Shown here: in pieces, positions 35,411-63,310 of the stretch | Layout of the letters: each line of letters starts with the position of its first letter | Numbering within the stretch: the stretch's first letter is position 1 | From: a phage | NCBI GenBank assembly: GCA_024614665.1 | Contig: GCA_024614665.1_4861.1 | Strand: one strand, 5' to 3' | DNA: 64,000 bases | The notes under the pieces: model-generated | The model's input: only the letters and a program-made list of their open reading frames with translations | The model's database searches: none | What the model was told of the DNA's origin: nothing | Position numbers and translations under genes: made by a program

Positions 35411-35451
35411 TCCAAAATCAAAAAAAATAGGGCAGTCATAAGACCACCCTA
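35411..35451 (-). terminator. candidate rho-independent terminator
   Basis: Minus strand 7-bp stem AATAGGG/CCCTATT with 15-nt loop followed by T-run; after stop of 35509..35997. Confidence 0.35.
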
Positions 35452-35508
35452 TTGTTTACTGCTTCCGACCGAGTAGCTCAGCGAGTTACTTTGGGCTGGA
35501 CGGAATCA

Positions 35509-35997
35509 TTATTCGTCGTCTTCGTCTTCTTCATCAGTTGCCATCATGGACTTGGCAAACTCTTTACGCAGCTTGCCTTCCAACGCTTTAGACTTCGGAG
35601 AACCGAAACCGTAAGAGATGGACGCTGCCCATTCTTTCTGAGTTGGGTTTTCAGTAACCGGGCGAGAGAACACGGTAGAGAATGCTGCGTTACCGATATC
35701 GAGCGTTAAGTCCAGTGCACCGATTTCGCTATCCGCTTTTGCACGGTCGGCAATCAGACCACCGGCAACGCCACCGAACAGTTCAGTGAAGTTTGCGTCG
35801 TGCTGTCGCAGAGCGTCAGCGTCTTCCAGTGTGAAGCGATAGTCCACATCCCCAACTTTCGTTACCGGGAGCGTGGAAGTATATAGCTCGACGAGCGGCT
35901 CAGCGTTCAGCGCCAGGTCTTCGGACAGGGTTGCTGCCGGCGTGTCCAGTTCAGCGATCAGTTTGTGCAGTGCTTTCATTGAAGTTACTTCAGCCAT
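35509..35997 (-). CDS. hypothetical acidic protein (162 aa)
   Basis: ORF track; acidic C-terminus. Confidence 0.5.
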   Translation of the reverse strand: MAEVTSMKALHKLIAELDTPAATLSEDLALNAEPLVELYTSTLPVTKVGDVDYRFTLEDADALRQHDANFTELFGGVAGGLIADRAKADSEIGALDLTLDIGNAAFSTVFSRPVTENPTQKEWAASISYGFGSPKSKALEGKLRKEFAKSMMATDEEDEDDE

Positions 35998-36023
35998 CTT
36001 AATATTCCTTAAGGTCAGTGTGA

Positions 36024-36695
36024 TTAATCGTGTGAAAGACGAGCTTCGAGGTCGTCGATAATGGTATCTGTGAAATAGCTAATATCTAGCTGCTCCACGA
36101 AATCCCTGCGTTCCAGAATGCGCTCTGCGAAGAGCGTACCGTACCAACTAGGGACATTACTAACGCCGTTGCGTCCGAACTTCTGCTGGACATGACCAAC
36201 GGCATGGAATTTTGCATCACCTTTGCTTTTACCCTGTTCACGGGCAAACAGATAAGAACGGTGCATGTAATTGCTCACGTCATCTACAGACGGTATACCA
36301 CGGTCAGCTGCGGCAACTATCTCAGAGACAATCCCGTTGTAGTTCCCTTTGTGAGAACTGCGGTGTTCTAAGACTGCATGGGCAATCGTCAAACATTCAT
36401 CATCGGTAAGTTTATACTTACGTTTGAGCACTGGCTTGTTATCCAGTATCCAGCTATACCCTTTGATGTGGTGCGACGCACGGTCTTCTTTGGTAGAGAA
36501 GATGTCGTGAGCTGCCACCGCAATCAGTATCAGCTTCAGGTGTTCGGTTTGCCCAAGCATATACGCGATACGAATCGCATTTGATTTAACTGAGTTGATG
36601 TGATCCATGCGATGCGCACTATCGGTATAACGATAGAAGTCGCGGAATTGACGAACCAGTTTTTCCCAAAGTTTGTTGAGTTCAGTGCCCTGCAT
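36024..36695 (-). CDS. putative HD-domain phosphohydrolase (223 aa)
   Basis: His...His-Asp...His pattern typical of HD-domain metal sites (MDHINSV, LIAVAAHDIF, SHHIKG); assignment by motif only. Confidence 0.4.
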   Translation of the reverse strand: MQGTELNKLWEKLVRQFRDFYRYTDSAHRMDHINSVKSNAIRIAYMLGQTEHLKLILIAVAAHDIFSTKEDRASHHIKGYSWILDNKPVLKRKYKLTDDECLTIAHAVLEHRSSHKGNYNGIVSEIVAAADRGIPSVDDVSNYMHRSYLFAREQGKSKGDAKFHAVGHVQQKFGRNGVSNVPSWYGTLFAERILERRDFVEQLDISYFTDTIIDDLEARLSHD

Positions 36696-36729
36696 GTAAA
36701 TATTCCTTACGGTAATGGTCGATTAACTA

Positions 36730-37119
36730 CTACGAGAATGTGTGATAACAACGTGTCAGTGTAACTTTCACGTTATCAGAATGGTCTTCGTTGGTATACA
36801 CCACCGGCCAGATAATGTTATCAGACGAAAGCGTCTTTGATAACCCTTCAATCAATTCCTTCATTGAGGTTCCCTTCAGCCGATGGGTCGTACGCCACCT
36901 GTGTGACGTCATACGGCTATAAACCACCATATCTGGTGTAAGGGTACTACTTTCCTCTTTAATCTCCTCTAAACGCTTCTCCTCGCTTTCTACGAAGCTT
37001 AGTAAAGCATCTGGATTTCGAACAAACTCACCGAAACGATCGTCTCGGCGCAAGCCACAAAGAACCCATAGCGTAAATGGATCTCTGCACGCATCTACCA
37101 ACCCCTCTGCGATTTTCAT
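36730..37119 (-). CDS. hypothetical protein (129 aa)
   Basis: ORF track. Confidence 0.5.
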   Translation of the reverse strand: MKIAEGLVDACRDPFTLWVLCGLRRDDRFGEFVRNPDALLSFVESEEKRLEEIKEESSTLTPDMVVYSRMTSHRWRTTHRLKGTSMKELIEGLSKTLSSDNIIWPVVYTNEDHSDNVKVTLTRCYHTFS

Positions 37120-37173
37120 TTTATTCCTTCCTACACAGTCAAAGGATTTGTACGATTCGTTATTTTTGAGAGA

Positions 37174-37572
37174 TCAGATCAGCTGCTCGGCGCGCAAACG
37201 TCTCAAAGTGTTCGTTGCTGTAATAAGAACATCTTGCAGCTCTTGTATTGCTTCGCCATCAAAGTACGCTTTAAGATGCAGGTCGCTGGTGATGAGTCCG
37301 CCGTATTTGTAAGGCAGGTCTGTAATATCACAGACGATGGGATTTTCTGCTCGCCACTTTTCATCAGCAATGAGAATAAGAAACTTCCAGGCGTTTTGAT
37401 TGTCGAGCGCTTCGCCGGTTTCTGGCTTGTAGAGTTCTTTTAAACGTTTATCGCGCTCAGCGATAAGGTATTCGTCATCAGTCAACAGACGAATTAAATC
37501 GGCTTCGTTGCTCTCGGCTTTAGCACAAAGCATCATGGCAACAAAGGGGTCTTGGCGTAGTTGGTTAGTCAT
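37174..37572 (-). CDS. hypothetical protein (132 aa)
   Basis: ORF track. Confidence 0.5.
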   Translation of the reverse strand: MTNQLRQDPFVAMMLCAKAESNEADLIRLLTDDEYLIAERDKRLKELYKPETGEALDNQNAWKFLILIADEKWRAENPIVCDITDLPYKYGGLITSDLHLKAYFDGEAIQELQDVLITATNTLRRLRAEQLI

Positions 37573-37661
37573 TGTAAATACTCCTTCTGGGTAATAGTCG
37601 ATTAAAGCGTTAACGTGTAACGCTCACCTAAGTAATATATATCTCAGTTCTTTTTGAATGC

Positions 37662-37710
37662 AATTAATAAAATAAAAAGGCTCACCCGTATCCGAAGATA
37701 GGATGAGCCT
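37662..37710 (-). terminator. rho-independent terminator
   Basis: Minus strand imperfect hairpin GGCTCATCCTATC-TTCGG-ATACGGGTGAGCC then T-rich run; follows stop at 37719. Confidence 0.5.
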
Positions 37711-37718
37711 AGTGGAGC

Positions 37719-38267
37719 TTAGACTTGCAGTAGTGTCCCCGAGTGAGTAATCGGGTCATTGTAGAACGCTTCACACTGGAGGCAAATGCCATCAATGTTC
37801 GGTTCTTCAGTTCGCGACCATATTGCCGCGCCACCTTGCAAAATCCATTCTCGACAGTTACGACCATAATCGTCGACAAGCAAATTACCTCGCGAGGCGT
37901 AAGCTTTCTTCTGCCCTGAACTTTCGGTGACGATGACTTTGTCAGCTGGTACCCCAAAGTGCTTCATGAACCACCGTTGTTTTGAATCCACAACCAATTG
38001 GTGGTCGTAGTGATCTTCTGACCCAGAGGTGAGTATTGCCCAACTGTCGCAAAGTCTATCTACCGTTTCCAGGATTCGCTCTACACCCTCAATTGGTTCG
38101 AGTTTGTAAAACAGGTCAGGATCGTTCTGATACATCGAACGAACCAAACTACGACGGCGGAGTTCAGGTAATGCGTTAAACTCTTTAATCGTCATTCCGG
38201 GAAAATGTGTGGATAAAACGTATTTACGCCAGCGTGCAAAAACGCCATCGCTATCCAGATAAAACAT
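37719..38267 (-). CDS. putative HAD-superfamily 5'(3')-nucleotidase-like phosphatase (about 182 aa)
   Basis: N-terminal MFYLDSDGVF matches HAD motif I (DxDG); later LVDDYG; start moved from ORF track 38306 to ATG at 38267. Confidence 0.4.
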   Translation of the reverse strand: MFYLDSDGVFARWRKYVLSTHFPGMTIKEFNALPELRRRSLVRSMYQNDPDLFYKLEPIEGVERILETVDRLCDSWAILTSGSEDHYDHQLVVDSKQRWFMKHFGVPADKVIVTESSGQKKAYASRGNLLVDDYGRNCREWILQGGAAIWSRTEEPNIDGICLQCEAFYNDPITHSGTLLQV

Positions 38268-38320
38268 TTTCTTGTCCTTATTTTGTTCCCCAACACATGA
38301 AACCAACGTCGTGTAAAAAA

Positions 38321-38665
38321 CTACATTTGCTTTATTGCCATATTCGAACGATACGGCTCAGTGAGTAGAAAGTAAGTACGGCGATAGTCGATTGTCACTC
38401 CAGCCTCTTTAATGTCGCAATAGAGTGCCATGATATCTAGCGACGCGATTCCGGAGATAATGTTATTAACCTTGCGTTTTGTATCAAAACGTTCCGATAA
38501 GATTTCGGCAAGCACTTCCTTACCAGCCTTTCCTTGGATGGCGTAGATCGCTAACGCTTTCAGTTCTTCCGGCGTCAAACAACGAAGGGTCGGAGGTATT
38601 GCGATGTTAACGACCTTCATGCGTCCCCCTACTGTAGTGGTTTTTAGTTGTGATTTGCAGACCAC
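38321..38665 (-). CDS. hypothetical protein (114 aa)
   Basis: ORF track. Confidence 0.5.
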   Translation of the reverse strand: MVCKSQLKTTTVGGRMKVVNIAIPPTLRCLTPEELKALAIYAIQGKAGKEVLAEILSERFDTKRKVNNIISGIASLDIMALYCDIKEAGVTIDYRRTYFLLTEPYRSNMAIKQM

Positions 38666-38675
38666 GAACTAGGCA

Positions 38676-39305
38676 CTACGGTGTAACGACGTATTCGTTC
38701 AGTGCGTTATCAAAAGCAGTACGCGCAGTGGCGACCGCCTCCGAGACCTTAACTTCACCGCGCTCCCAGTTGACGCTGATAATCAGTCGATAAAATTCGC
38801 CGGCTTTCAGCAGTTGACTGGTAGACAGGCGCACATCTTGTCCGAAACTTAAGTGATAGACAAAAACGTGGCCGCCGTTGCGAAGTTCTGACAACCGCAT
38901 CTCGCCCAGGTAAATCGGTTTGATATCCCAGTTCGACATGCGGTGCGGTACAATCCATACTTCACCCGCCCGATTCGGTTCCTGCGTCAGGTTGACCGAA
39001 GGCTGCGCTACATCACGTTCATCAAAACCGTAAAGATACAATCGTGTGGGTATTTCGATTGCAGAGAAGTTGTGACGTGCACCCTTAATCGCTCGCTCTA
39101 AATCTACCGAGCAGCAAATCCTGGGCACGGTCTTGTCTTCATCTGGCGCGCACGAAAGTGGGATACGCGGCGAAAACGTCGGTATCTTACACTTGCTTAA
39201 ATGCAGCGGCTGTTCAGTCAGTTTACGCAACGTCAACTTTTTGGCGACGTGCGGCATCTGGCGTTCACACCACCGCTCTAATGACGGGTCGATATGTTCT
39301 GCCAT
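38676..39305 (-). CDS. hypothetical protein (209 aa)
   Basis: ORF track. Confidence 0.5.
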   Translation of the reverse strand: MAEHIDPSLERWCERQMPHVAKKLTLRKLTEQPLHLSKCKIPTFSPRIPLSCAPDEDKTVPRICCSVDLERAIKGARHNFSAIEIPTRLYLYGFDERDVAQPSVNLTQEPNRAGEVWIVPHRMSNWDIKPIYLGEMRLSELRNGGHVFVYHLSFGQDVRLSTSQLLKAGEFYRLIISVNWERGEVKVSEAVATARTAFDNALNEYVVTP

Positions 39306-39308
39306 TTT

Positions 39309-40112
39309 TTACCAGCTCCTTACACCCATGCCCATTACCCGCAGATTGGACACTTTCGGAGCCAGCTGCAGGTATTCCTGCGCGAGTTGCTGGAGAGCAC
39401 CACGACGGGACTCAGTGGCAACAGCGCTGGTCGTTGTCGGATTGTACAGAATGTCTTCCAACACTTGACGACTGATAGGGCGGTCGACGTAAGTGCGAGT
39501 AGATTCCTGTGCCACTTTACTACCGCGTTGAATCGCAGAGTATTTGTTACAGATTTGCAGGCCATCTTCAATAACCCAGTCAAAGGTGACCAGTTTATCG
39601 ATACGGCGTACGATAGTCGTACCCAGACGACCTTCACGAACGATAGCACGCAGTGAGAAACACACGTTCTGATGTGGGTTCTCTAGTGCTTCCGCCAGAA
39701 GCGGACCACGTTCACGGTTAGGTTTAATCCAACCCCAGATTTCCATTACCGGCAGACCGTTACACATCTGGTCGGTCGGCTTCACTTCTACTTCGCGAAT
39801 GTGCATACACACGTTACGCGTTTCGATCCATTCGTTACGTTCGATCCACTGGGCTTCGCTCATGCCTTGTTCGTATTGCGGATGGTCTTCTTCACCGAAG
39901 AGATTCCCCGCCAAAACTTTACGCATGAAAACGTTAGAGCGCTCGAAGACATGTTTTGACTCGTTATAGGCGTAGTAAATATTCTCAGAGTTGAAAATAT
40001 TCAGTGCACCTAACAGGACGTAGTAATACCCGTCCGCATCTTTCTTTAGCGTTGCCCCTTTATTGACCCCAGCGAGTGCCACGCAGTTATAACGTAGTGA
40101 CAAGTTTTCCAT
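39309..40112 (-). CDS. hypothetical protein (267 aa)
   Basis: ORF track. Confidence 0.5.
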   Translation of the reverse strand: MENLSLRYNCVALAGVNKGATLKKDADGYYYVLLGALNIFNSENIYYAYNESKHVFERSNVFMRKVLAGNLFGEEDHPQYEQGMSEAQWIERNEWIETRNVCMHIREVEVKPTDQMCNGLPVMEIWGWIKPNRERGPLLAEALENPHQNVCFSLRAIVREGRLGTTIVRRIDKLVTFDWVIEDGLQICNKYSAIQRGSKVAQESTRTYVDRPISRQVLEDILYNPTTTSAVATESRRGALQQLAQEYLQLAPKVSNLRVMGMGVRSW

Positions 40113-58616: not shown

Positions 58617-59051
58617 GCGTTCGATAATCACTTTTACGATATCTTCTACCGGAGGGTAATACCACAACACCACACTGTTTCGTCCCAAGTCTTTTGGAAA
58701 CGTTTGGCAATATGCAATGTCGGTGCCGAAGCGCTCAGAGAGCTTTAAAACGTTCTCTGGGAACTGACAACCACCACGCCAGTCGTGCGTATAGAGTACC
58801 TGCTGTAATAATTTCACATTAGCATCGAAGAAGTACAGATTTTCTACCGGCGCAATGTGAGGTACCGGAATTGGTGTGTCGGTGAGTACGAACTCCAAAC
58901 CACCGCATTGTTCTGAACGCTCCGCTAGGAATTTCAGATGCCATGGCATTAGACCGTGGTCTTCCCAGACGATATTGTTGACCAGTAAACGATCAACGTA
59001 TTCGTCGTAATCAACCGTGAACAGTTTCTTCGCCATCGGTAAACGCCTCAT
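58614..59051 (-). CDS. hypothetical protein (145 aa)
   Basis: ORF track; start uncertain (overlaps upstream gene by 41 nt). Confidence 0.45.
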   Translation of the reverse strand: MRRLPMAKKLFTVDYDEYVDRLLVNNIVWEDHGLMPWHLKFLAERSEQCGGLEFVLTDTPIPVPHIAPVENLYFFDANVKLLQQVLYTHDWRGGCQFPENVLKLSERFGTDIAYCQTFPKDLGRNSVVLWYYPPVEDIVKVIIER

Positions 59052-59952
59052 CTTTTACAGTAAGGGAACCGTTTACTTCGATTTCAGCAGCAGTCATGTC
59101 TGCTTCTTTAACGAAGATACCGTCCGCGTTCAGGAAACCCTTACGGTCTTTGATTTCATCCCACGCCAAGGAGAAGCACTGTTCCAGAGTCATATCGTAC
59201 GCAATAGCCAGCGCATTGGCGTATTCGACCATCTGAGCGAAGTGACATTCGATCATTACCGCGTCGCTGTTCTCGAAGTGTTTATATTCGAGTTGCTTAG
59301 CTGAGTCGATGCCTGCCTGATCCCAGATATAATCAACCGCACAAGTAAGATGGAAACGCATTTTGTGGAACAGGTAATGACTGTTCCCGGCGTGTGGTTT
59401 CTTTGAACGTGCGTCGTTGACGTATGTGCTGATATCGGTTGAGTCAAACTTAATGAGTTCCATCAAGTTAACCAACACGACCAGAGCATCACCGATACCG
59501 TCCATGATGTAACGACGTTTGTTTTTACTGATACCGGTTGCCGCTTCACCGTCTTCTTCGTAGAGTTTGGTGGCTTGGCTATACCAGACGCCGTTATCCA
59601 GAATACCACGCGCTTTAGACCAACCCATAACGTTAGTAATACATTGTGGGATGGTGTACAAAGGTACGTAACGCGGACGATCAACCGTACCACGATACTC
59701 GACACCTTCCAACGTCCACGGCATTTCGAAATCATTTATTTCCAAACTCTGGTCGCCTGTGAATACTTTACCTTCGACGTAAGTGTGACCGGTTTCACTG
59801 TTCACGCACAGGGTGTACAGTTTCTCAAAGGACCACGGTTCAACAAACTGACGTTGGCAGAATCCAGCCAGAAGCTCATTAATCTGTGCCAGGTACTGGT
59901 TAGGTTCAACAATAACGTTATACGGAATCTGGATAATGAAACGGTCGCCCAT
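59011..59952 (-). CDS. hypothetical protein (313 aa) with possible MazG-like NTP pyrophosphohydrolase segment
   Basis: Weak motif resemblance only (KLYEEDGEAA ... IMDGIGDALVVLVNL resembles the EExGE / ELGD helices of MazG-type enzymes). Confidence 0.3.
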   Translation of the reverse strand: MGDRFIIQIPYNVIVEPNQYLAQINELLAGFCQRQFVEPWSFEKLYTLCVNSETGHTYVEGKVFTGDQSLEINDFEMPWTLEGVEYRGTVDRPRYVPLYTIPQCITNVMGWSKARGILDNGVWYSQATKLYEEDGEAATGISKNKRRYIMDGIGDALVVLVNLMELIKFDSTDISTYVNDARSKKPHAGNSHYLFHKMRFHLTCAVDYIWDQAGIDSAKQLEYKHFENSDAVMIECHFAQMVEYANALAIAYDMTLEQCFSLAWDEIKDRKGFLNADGIFVKEADMTAAEIEVNGSLTVKDEAFTDGEETVHG

Positions 59953-62272: not shown

Positions 62273-63310
62273 TTAGATAGCGACTGGTGCTTTAATTGGG
62301 TCGTGTGATACATAATCCCGGATCTCAAAATCTTCGAACTTATAATCGAAGATAGATTCCGGTTTACGCTTGATGACCAGTTTCGGTAAAGGTAAATGTT
62401 CGCGCGTCAGCTGCAGCTTGGCCTGCTCCAGATGGTTGGAGTACAGATGCACATCGCCGCCACTCCAAACGAAATCGCCCGGCACCATGTTAACTTGCTG
62501 TGCTACCATGTGTACGAGTAATGCGTAAGACGCGATGTTGAACGGTGTTCCCAGGAAGAAGTCTTGGGAACGTGCGTACAGTTGACATGAAAGAACGCGG
62601 CGAGGTATTTCAAGTGCGTCCATCTCAACGTGGAACACTGTGTCATCTGCTACAGCTTCATTACTAAAGCGGGAATCGTTAAATTGATCTGGAAGGTTCT
62701 TTTCAAACCAATCAAGACGCTCGTCGATAGACAGCTCACGAGTGTAGAACTGAAAGAACGCATGACACGGAGCTAACGCCATTTGATCCAACTCACCCAC
62801 GTTCCATGCGCTGACAATAATACGGCGACTGTCAGGATCGTTACGCAGCTGGTCAATCACCTTAGAGATCTGGTCGTGCTCTTTCAGAAGTACACGCGCA
62901 TCGAACATTTGTGAACCGTCGTCCGCGTCGCCATAATCCGCGTATCCAGCAGCTTGCAGTTTCTCGAGTAAAGCTGCATTTTTCTTAGGCACCAGTTTCA
63001 CATCTTTCCAACGTCTCCATTGTGCACCATACAGGGGTCCAAGGTTCCCATTCTCATCTTGCCACTCCCGCCAAATGGTAACGCCGTTATCTTCCAGATA
63101 TTTGGTGTTGGTATCACCACTAAGGAACCACAGCAATTCATGGATAATAGAACGCAGGTGGAGTTTCTTAGTCGTGACTAACGGGAAACCTTTACGCAAA
63201 TCAAAACGCATCTGGCGACCAAAGACAGAAAGCGTCCCCGTTCCAGTACGATCGCCTTTAACATGACCCTCGTCCAGAATGTTCTGCATCATCTCAAGAT
63301 ATTGTTTCAC
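62273..63310 (-). CDS. thyA: thymidylate synthase family protein (ThyA-like, about 345 aa with two insertions); could equally be a dUMP hydroxymethylase-type homologue
   Basis: [31 protein letters not shown] matches E. coli ThyA N-terminus [31 protein letters not shown] if translation starts at GTG 63310; active-site [12 protein letters not shown] and [30 protein letters not shown]-terminal KAPVAI conserved; two insertions of about 40-45 aa. Confidence 0.8.

Follow-up and report, generated by a model that had tools for sequence, protein, structure and literature searches.

Two putative nucleotide-phosphate hydrolases are encoded close together, at positions 36,024 to 38,267, in a 64,000-nucleotide stretch of phage DNA (NCBI GenBank assembly GCA_024614665.1, contig GCA_024614665.1_4861.1), which we call the window. 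One carries the HD motif AAHDI, the other the HAD motif YLDSDGV. A preliminary description made from the sequence placed the two genes in one operon and suggested that, with ThyA-like and MazG-like genes in the same window, their products would reshape the pool of deoxynucleoside triphosphates (dNTPs), for example by excluding a canonical nucleotide. The locus thus raises the questions of whether the proteins belong to the families that their motifs indicate, how their genes are arranged and what the enzymes might do for the phage. The two family memberships are as good as certain. For the role, we lean towards two separate, adjacent and co-oriented auxiliary nucleotide-metabolism genes, which may sanitize or balance the nucleotide pool.

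Both open reading frames (ORFs) were found on the minus strand. The HD gene (36024–36695) encodes 223 amino acids (aa), with AAHDI at residues 61–65, and corresponds to SPN3US YP_009153545, 'putative HD domain protein'. The HAD-type gene (37719–38267) encodes 182 aa, has its ATG at 38267 and MFYLDSDGV as its N-terminus, and corresponds to SPN3US YP_009153542. Over the 3.9 kb around them (35500–39400), identity is 99.0% to Enterobacteria phage SEGD1, 98.7% to Salmonella phage SPN3US and no lower than 96.7% to 21 other Seoulvirus records. We therefore assign the window to an SPN3US-like (Seoulvirus) jumbo phage genome of about 240 kb, of the nucleus-forming type.

Family placement of the two proteins

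The 182-aa protein matched the Pfam family NT5C (PF06941) at an E-value of 3.1e-8 and 34.1 bits, above the gathering score of 24.8, and PHROG 2643, '5'-3' deoxyribonucleotidase', at 6.8e-19. Used as a single sequence against the PDB, it retrieved the mouse and human 5'(3')-deoxyribonucleotidases (E ~0.008) in an alignment that takes in the FF/FY segment, the TS motif, the YDH segment and the LL(V/I)DD motif; the NT5C family profile was less sensitive in this search than the single sequence. Across 15 homologues, with identities down to 54%, the residues of HAD motifs I (DxD) to IV do not vary (D5, D7, T80, S81, K120, D132 and D133). The predicted structure is confident, with a Rossmann-like HAD core and a small helical cap, and its nearest matches are again 5'(3')-deoxyribonucleotidases. 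The Pfam score and the fold bear out the assignment as a HAD-type nucleotidase, and, within the limits of what sequence and fold reveal, the protein belongs to NT5C. Related records already carry the label: the protein is NT5C in SPFM19 and a putative 5'(3')-deoxyribonucleotidase in pEa_SNUABM_8. Its closest systems are human cdN/NT5C, human mdN/NT5M and Staphylococcus 3BWV, from which it differs in having no N-terminal extension, with the predicted nucleophile Asp at residue 5, and in a C-terminal stretch of about 30 residues that is specific to the phage clade.

Placing the HD protein required family profiles and structure prediction, since the single sequence, searched against Pfam, NCBIfam and the PDB, gave nothing or a weak match to YedJ. 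By itself the 223-aa protein had no Pfam match at E ≤ 1 and no PDB match by phmmer. Its match to the NCBIfam YedJ model (E 2.5e-5) fell far under the equivalog cut-off, so it is not a YedJ orthologue. Pfam HD (PF01966) was matched individually by 10 of 24 close and 12 of 39 distant homologues (best E 9.6e-7). A profile from the 24 close homologues, in which H28, H32, H63, D64, H75, E110-H111-R112 and D131 are invariant, matched 2pq7 ('predicted HD superfamily hydrolase'), YedJ and SE1688 in the PDB. The family is large: a profile search of 1.84 billion representatives returned 1092 clusters at E ≤ 1e-3, 640 of them at E ≤ 1e-10. All 39 members sampled from it belong to phrog_3921, a family with no assigned function, as does the protein itself. 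In the alignment of these 39 homologues, which reaches down to 25% identity, H28, H32, H63, D64, H75, H111 and D131 remain invariant, and D25, R112, S114, R146, K172 and G174 are nearly so. The broader profile matched the solved structures 2pq7 (1.4e-11), YedJ 3gw7 (5.7e-10), 3djb (1e-5), 3b57 (1.3e-4) and, at 5.9e-3, Bacillus subtilis YpgQ (5dqv). The structure was confidently predicted as an all-alpha HD fold. Together, the profile matches to the PDB, the fold and the invariant catalytic residues uphold the HD assignment, and no hidden Markov model (HMM) search placed either protein outside the HD or HAD families.

We compared the predicted active site with those of YpgQ and PenF. YpgQ hydrolyses (d)NTPs as a Mn2+-dependent pyrophosphohydrolase; its metal is bound by H29, H58, D59 and D124, and H25, R136, F140 and H158 are its active-site residues (HD-protein review, PMC8177086). 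In an HMM alignment (chain numbering offset by six), phage H28, H32, H63, D64, D131, R146 and F150 align with YpgQ ligand or active-site residues, H28, R146 and F150 corresponding to YpgQ H25, R136 and F140. The streptomycete PenF, of the YpgQ-like group, is a nucleoside 5'-monophosphatase that uses R140, F144, H174 and K178 (PMC11592144). It has the same H..HD..D ligands and an R-x3-F plus H-x3-K pattern, to which phage R146/F150 and H168/K172 would correspond. For PenF this correspondence was derived through YpgQ and 3b57, not from a direct alignment: the alignment pairs phage H168 and K172 with the QH..DK segment of 3b57, from which we infer that they match YpgQ H158 and PenF K178. Considering the matches to structures of this clade together with the conserved ligands and nucleotide-binding residues, we place the phage protein as a divergent member of the YedJ/YpgQ/PenF clade, with intact catalytic residues and a predicted mononucleotide-type site.

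The divergence is considerable. Identity to YpgQ (5DQV), YedJ (3GW7), 2PQ7, 3DJB and 3B57 is only 16–21%, and phrog_3921, unlike the YpgQ group, is mostly phage-borne. The phage family also has two additional invariant histidines, H75 and H111 (the latter in an EHRxS motif), which it has in common with 2pq7 and YedJ and which YpgQ lacks. An extended histidine pattern is associated with dinuclear HD sites (PMC8177086), and given H75 and H111 the metal nuclearity and chemistry of the phage enzyme may depart from those of YpgQ. PenF differs in that its gene is part of a cluster for antibiotic biosynthesis and in its preference for arabinonucleotides (PMC11592144).

The failure of the HD protein to match Pfam on its own could also indicate that one or both have lost catalysis and serve as scaffolds, or that their motifs are accidental. 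We find this scarcely credible, as the catalytic residues are invariant across deep alignments and the confident models match the folds of the two families. From that invariance, neither motif appears to be a chance match.

Relatives and fusions of the HD protein

Some members of the HD family are fused to other enzymes. In P0115 the HD domain is fused to MazG, and the same architecture recurs in 20 clusters (P0115 and P0224–P0242; 315–330 aa, 49–100% identity, at least 96% coverage). These are sequences from metagenomes and metagenome-assembled genomes (MAGs), and their HD half falls within the family of the phage protein. We regard the fusion to MazG as solid evidence that the HD family acts in nucleotide metabolism. 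Close relatives that stand alone include one named from a Campylobacterales MAG. A second type of fusion was seen once: P0221 (780 aa, metagenomic) is a single ORF that joins an HD domain to ThyX interrupted by a LAGLIDADG intein.

Neighbouring genes were less informative. A thymidylate kinase lies four genes away from one HD homologue, and in Erwinia phage RAY the homologue gp73 (L016) lies 4 kb downstream of thymidylate synthase. A tblastn search of 31 loci for ThyA, ThyX, thymidylate kinase, dihydrofolate reductase (DHFR) and MazG near HD homologues returned only these two cases, and so does not establish that the family is enriched near thymidylate genes.

Among viral proteins, the best fold matches (Foldseek E 1.5e-8 to 5e-6) were HD hydrolases of other jumbo phages, namely Noxifer, RAY and Goslar. 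The HD hydrolases of Goslar, RAY (gp73), Noxifer and Klebsiella phage N1M2 were also found by tblastn, with identities of 24–32% (27–32% for N1M2 and RAY gp73). No NT5C neighbour was detected for the HD homologues of these four phages. The N1M2 homologue (L017, 230931–231635) adjoins tail tube and sheath genes, as in SPN3US.

The HD family features also bear on an anti-defence role. The HD enzyme might destroy immune or stress nucleotides such as cyclic oligonucleotides or alarmones, or the two enzymes might clear deoxynucleoside monophosphate (dNMP) signals such as m6-dAMP. The family has the extended H..HD..H..H..D motif, as dinuclear HD enzymes typically do (PMC8177086), six of the 39 relatives have weak matches to Pfam HD-CE, and defence by dNMP sensing exists, in that PUA-Cal-HAD is activated by m6-dAMP (bioRxiv 10.64898/2026.01.15.699771). 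However, both sequence and fold find their best matches in the YedJ/YpgQ clade and not among phosphodiesterases, the HDxxH signature of class I phosphodiesterases is missing from the HD sequence, and R146, F150, H168 and K172 are counterparts of the residues with which YpgQ and PenF bind a mononucleotide. The fusions to MazG and ThyX point to precursor metabolism instead. Neither the HD protein, the NT5C protein nor the two small ORFs between their genes showed similarity to entries in PADLOC, and no phage nucleotidase has been tied experimentally to defence evasion. We give an anti-defence role an outside chance.

Arrangement and transcription of the two genes

In the SPN3US RefSeq record, the minus-strand order runs from the head maturation protease (window 39309–40112) through two hypothetical genes to the 182-aa hypothetical that is the HAD candidate. 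It continues with two small hypotheticals, the 'putative HD domain protein' and three small genes, up to the convergent tail tube and sheath genes. Counted from the protease, gp245, the NT5C gene is gp248. In a full-text term search, gp246 and gp248–gp251 were unmentioned in the SPN3US virion and assembly accounts, and gp252 was unmentioned in one of them.

The proposal of one operon agrees with the shared strand and with the order of the genes, which is conserved. All 21 loci with HD identities of 37–100%, among them the SPN3US, phiEaH2, Wellington, Phobos and CR5-like lineages, have NT5C upstream of HD, across a gap of 73–1358 bp that holds zero to two small ORFs. The locus search with the close HD alignment yielded 23 loci, mostly from one clade. 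In three loci with about 30% HD identity there was no NT5C within 6 kb, and NT5C homologues also occur in many phages with no HD match. Together, these observations indicate that the pairing is specific to this clade.

An intrinsic-terminator-like element on the minus strand (37665–37710), directly 3' of the NT5C stop codon, makes transcription as one unit unlikely, although some read-through may occur. It consists of a 14-bp hairpin with a UUCG loop (37678–37710) followed by a U-rich tract, UUUUUAUUUUAUU (37665–37677). The predicted fold has −21 kcal/mol (z −3.9), and none of 200 shuffled sequences was equally stable. A hairpin and T-tract follow the NT5C stop codon in all 21 related loci (L005, L006, L018–L032 and L034–L037), at −16 to −29 kcal/mol and z-scores from −2.8 to −8.5. 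The stem sequences vary between lineages while the position stays constant. Retention of position and structure without conservation of sequence favours a functional terminator or 3'-end element. The element sits inside a region of morphogenesis genes.

A second argument against a single operon is that two unrelated small ORFs separate NT5C from HD in this phage. Both are on the minus strand and are lineage-specific inserts: a 132-aa ORF (37174–37572; phrog_27024) and a 129-aa ORF (36730–37119; phrog_23206), each from a family without assigned function. Neither has a match in Pfam, NCBIfam or PADLOC, and both are missing in relatives where NT5C directly adjoins HD. We considered whether the two might be paralogues and rejected this, as their sole match spans 11 residues at E 0.028. 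The minus-strand 5' leader of the HD gene (36696–36726) reads TTAATCGACYATTACC...AAGGARTATTTACA-ATG, and a second copy, again TTAATCGACYATTACC...AAGGARTATTTACA-ATG, precedes the 132-aa ORF (37573–37605, minus strand). The sequence TAATCGACYATTACC occurs exactly twice in the window, at these two leader copies (repeat families D1 and D13). Since the two small ORFs lie between the copies of this leader (about 33 nt) and relatives lack them, the pair may be a cassette that was inserted into the HD leader.

The next terminator-like hairpin on this strand (35426–35453) has a 12-bp stem followed by T8 and a predicted fold of −25.4 kcal/mol (z −5.0); it probably marks the end of the transcription unit that contains HD. 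The likely layout is thus a unit that runs through the protease, gp246, gp247 and NT5C to a terminator, and a next unit of gp249, gp250, HD, gp252 and gp253 that ends at another. NT5C and HD would then probably be transcribed separately. The phiKZ-like early-promoter word TATATTAC was considered in the gap between NT5C and gp249 and gave no evidence of a promoter, with two occurrences in the window against 1.4 expected. A sigma-70 promoter scan returned matches at chance level.

Several related records yielded poor matches at this locus. The region was matched by tblastn in many short pieces with broken frames in the records of SPFM5, 6, 9, 12 and 20 (LR535903, LR535905, LR535907, LR535911 and LR535917), and in the protein database the proteins named for SPFM6, 8, 9, 12 and 15 span just 11–31% of the queries. 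This fragmentation suggests error-rich assemblies and not real divergence.

Thymidylate genes and the role of the two enzymes

The window does contain a ThyA gene, at 62273–63289 on the minus strand. Its product is a bona fide ThyA, as three NCBIfam equivalog models for thymidylate synthase score it above their curated cut-offs (NF002499, 416 versus 405; NF002497, 397 versus 327; TIGR03284, 347 versus 108). Its 338 aa align to the 264-aa model in three stretches, with about 80 residues inserted between model positions ~104 and ~157, and sites under positive selection have been reported in the gene (Thanki et al., PMC6614189). The MazG-like gene is also present (59011–59952, minus strand) and is labelled 'mazG nucleotide pyrophosphohydrolase' in SPN3US. 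Its identity is less firm: the Pfam MazG match (residues 129–174 of 313) is weak, at E 0.004 and under the gathering score, and the protein has no NCBIfam match. DHFR and thymidylate kinase are annotated in near-identical genomes and have been described for the lineage (PMC6614189).

These genes bear directly on whether the HD and HAD enzymes, as a coordinated operon with the ThyA-like and MazG-like genes, strip one canonical deoxynucleotide so that phage DNA carries a substitute base. Such phages exist, namely PBS1, DSS3_VP1 and PhiR1-37, with deoxyuridine-containing DNA (dU-DNA), and S-2L, with DatZ, MazZ and PurZ. Both superfamilies have been put to this use: the dTMP phosphatases (Dtm) of PBS1 (PF06941) and DSS3_VP1 (HD, YfbR-type) are phage-encoded, act on deoxynucleotides and serve dU-DNA, paired with a dCTP deaminase in phages that lack thymidylate synthesis (PMC12697855). 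The conserved neighbourhood of NT5C and HD would also fit. However, this phage has ThyA, and related genomes have DHFR and thymidylate kinase with no annotated dCTP deaminase (Dcd), which amounts to a dTTP-producing set and leaves the exclusion unsupported. By annotation, SPN3US and Proteus phage 7 have no dCTP/dCMP deaminase, dUMP kinase, PurZ, hydroxymethylase, dUTPase or ribonucleotide reductase. Neither the combination that marks the dU-DNA pathway (dCTP deaminase, here judged by annotation, and dTMP/dTTP hydrolase, no thymidylate synthesis) nor that for 2-aminoadenine (a PurZ homologue and a DatZ-type HD dATPase) was found. In addition, a terminator lies between NT5C and HD, and the phage HD protein is of the YedJ/YpgQ type while DSS3_VP1 Dtm is of the YfbR type. 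The annotated nucleotide genes appear to centre on making dTTP, the opposite of what is seen in thymidine-excluding phages. Base exclusion is at best very unlikely.

We instead favour two auxiliary enzymes that act on the nucleotide pool. NT5C would be Mg2+-dependent, with Asp5 as the nucleophile that forms a phospho-enzyme intermediate, Asp7 as acid/base, and Thr80/Ser81, Lys120 and Asp132-Asp133 completing the active site. It would convert a dNMP to the deoxynucleoside and phosphate (Pi). By analogy with cdN, mdN and PBS1 Dtm, its likely substrates are the pyrimidine dNMPs dUMP and dTMP. In the HD protein, H32, H63-D64 and D131 would form the metal centre and R146, F150, H168 and K172 are predicted to bind the nucleotide. 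The enzyme most likely hydrolyses a mononucleotide, either a (d)NTP to (d)NMP and pyrophosphate (PPi), as YpgQ does, or a (d)NMP to the nucleoside and Pi, as PenF does. NT5C would close a unit that starts upstream among the head-protease genes, with HD in the next. Together with ThyA, DHFR and thymidylate kinase, both enzymes would trim or clean the deoxynucleotide pool during replication and not replace a base. We consider it probable that nucleotides are their substrates, while a direct biochemical coupling of the two is doubtful.

The chemistry of NT5C is also compatible with a role in which one or both enzymes dephosphorylate dNMPs derived from host DNA, leading to export and not recycling. 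Dmp of phage T5, a 5'-deoxyribonucleotidase, is a precedent for such disposal of host dNMPs. We found no evidence that SPN3US-like phages degrade host DNA to mononucleotides, and NT5C ends a unit with the head-maturation protease, a morphogenesis context that is not obviously early. A role of this kind is a long shot.

The conserved succession of NT5C, terminator and HD allows for a further possibility, that the pair forms a two-step drain in which one nucleotide species passes from (d)NTP to (d)NMP to nucleoside. Its target could be a non-canonical or damaged dNTP, or a host-derived dNMP that triggers immunity, such as m6-dAMP. The pair would then be a counter-defence or genome-purity module instead of housekeeping metabolism. 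We regard such a drain as improbable.

Several points weigh against the reading of two auxiliary pool enzymes that we prefer. The HD protein found no Pfam or PDB match as a single sequence, and the proteins nearest to it in structure, 2pq7 and YedJ, are themselves uncharacterised. The activities of both proteins, and of phrog_3921 members in general, are predictions from sequence and structural models. Apart from the fusions, the links to thymidylate genes are anecdotal and suggestive only, and the adjacency of NT5C and HD may merely reflect rigid synteny of this genome region. A phosphatase for dTMP or dUMP beside ThyA and thymidylate kinase would also form a partly futile cycle, unless specificity or timing differs.

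Both sequences and their family labels were already in public records, as 'putative HD domain protein' in SPN3US and as NT5C in one related record. The two genes represent no new kind of system; they are an ordinary pair of auxiliary metabolic genes that had been correctly spotted. For two accessory enzymes of a well-studied jumbo phage, the result confirms what databases already stated and takes away a speculative connection with base replacement; as it stands, it matters little and is of low interest. Beyond these labels, our analysis assigns the HD protein to a clade, puts its family at more than 1000 clusters at 50% identity and describes fusions to MazG and ThyX. It also contributes the conserved NT5C-terminator-HD arrangement, with probably separate transcription, and the negative result on base exclusion. 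The recurrent MazG fusion makes phrog_3921 a reasonable target for a first biochemical characterisation. Should the enzymes prove to be narrow in their choice of substrate, they could shed light on how the dNTP supply is managed in nucleus-forming phages.

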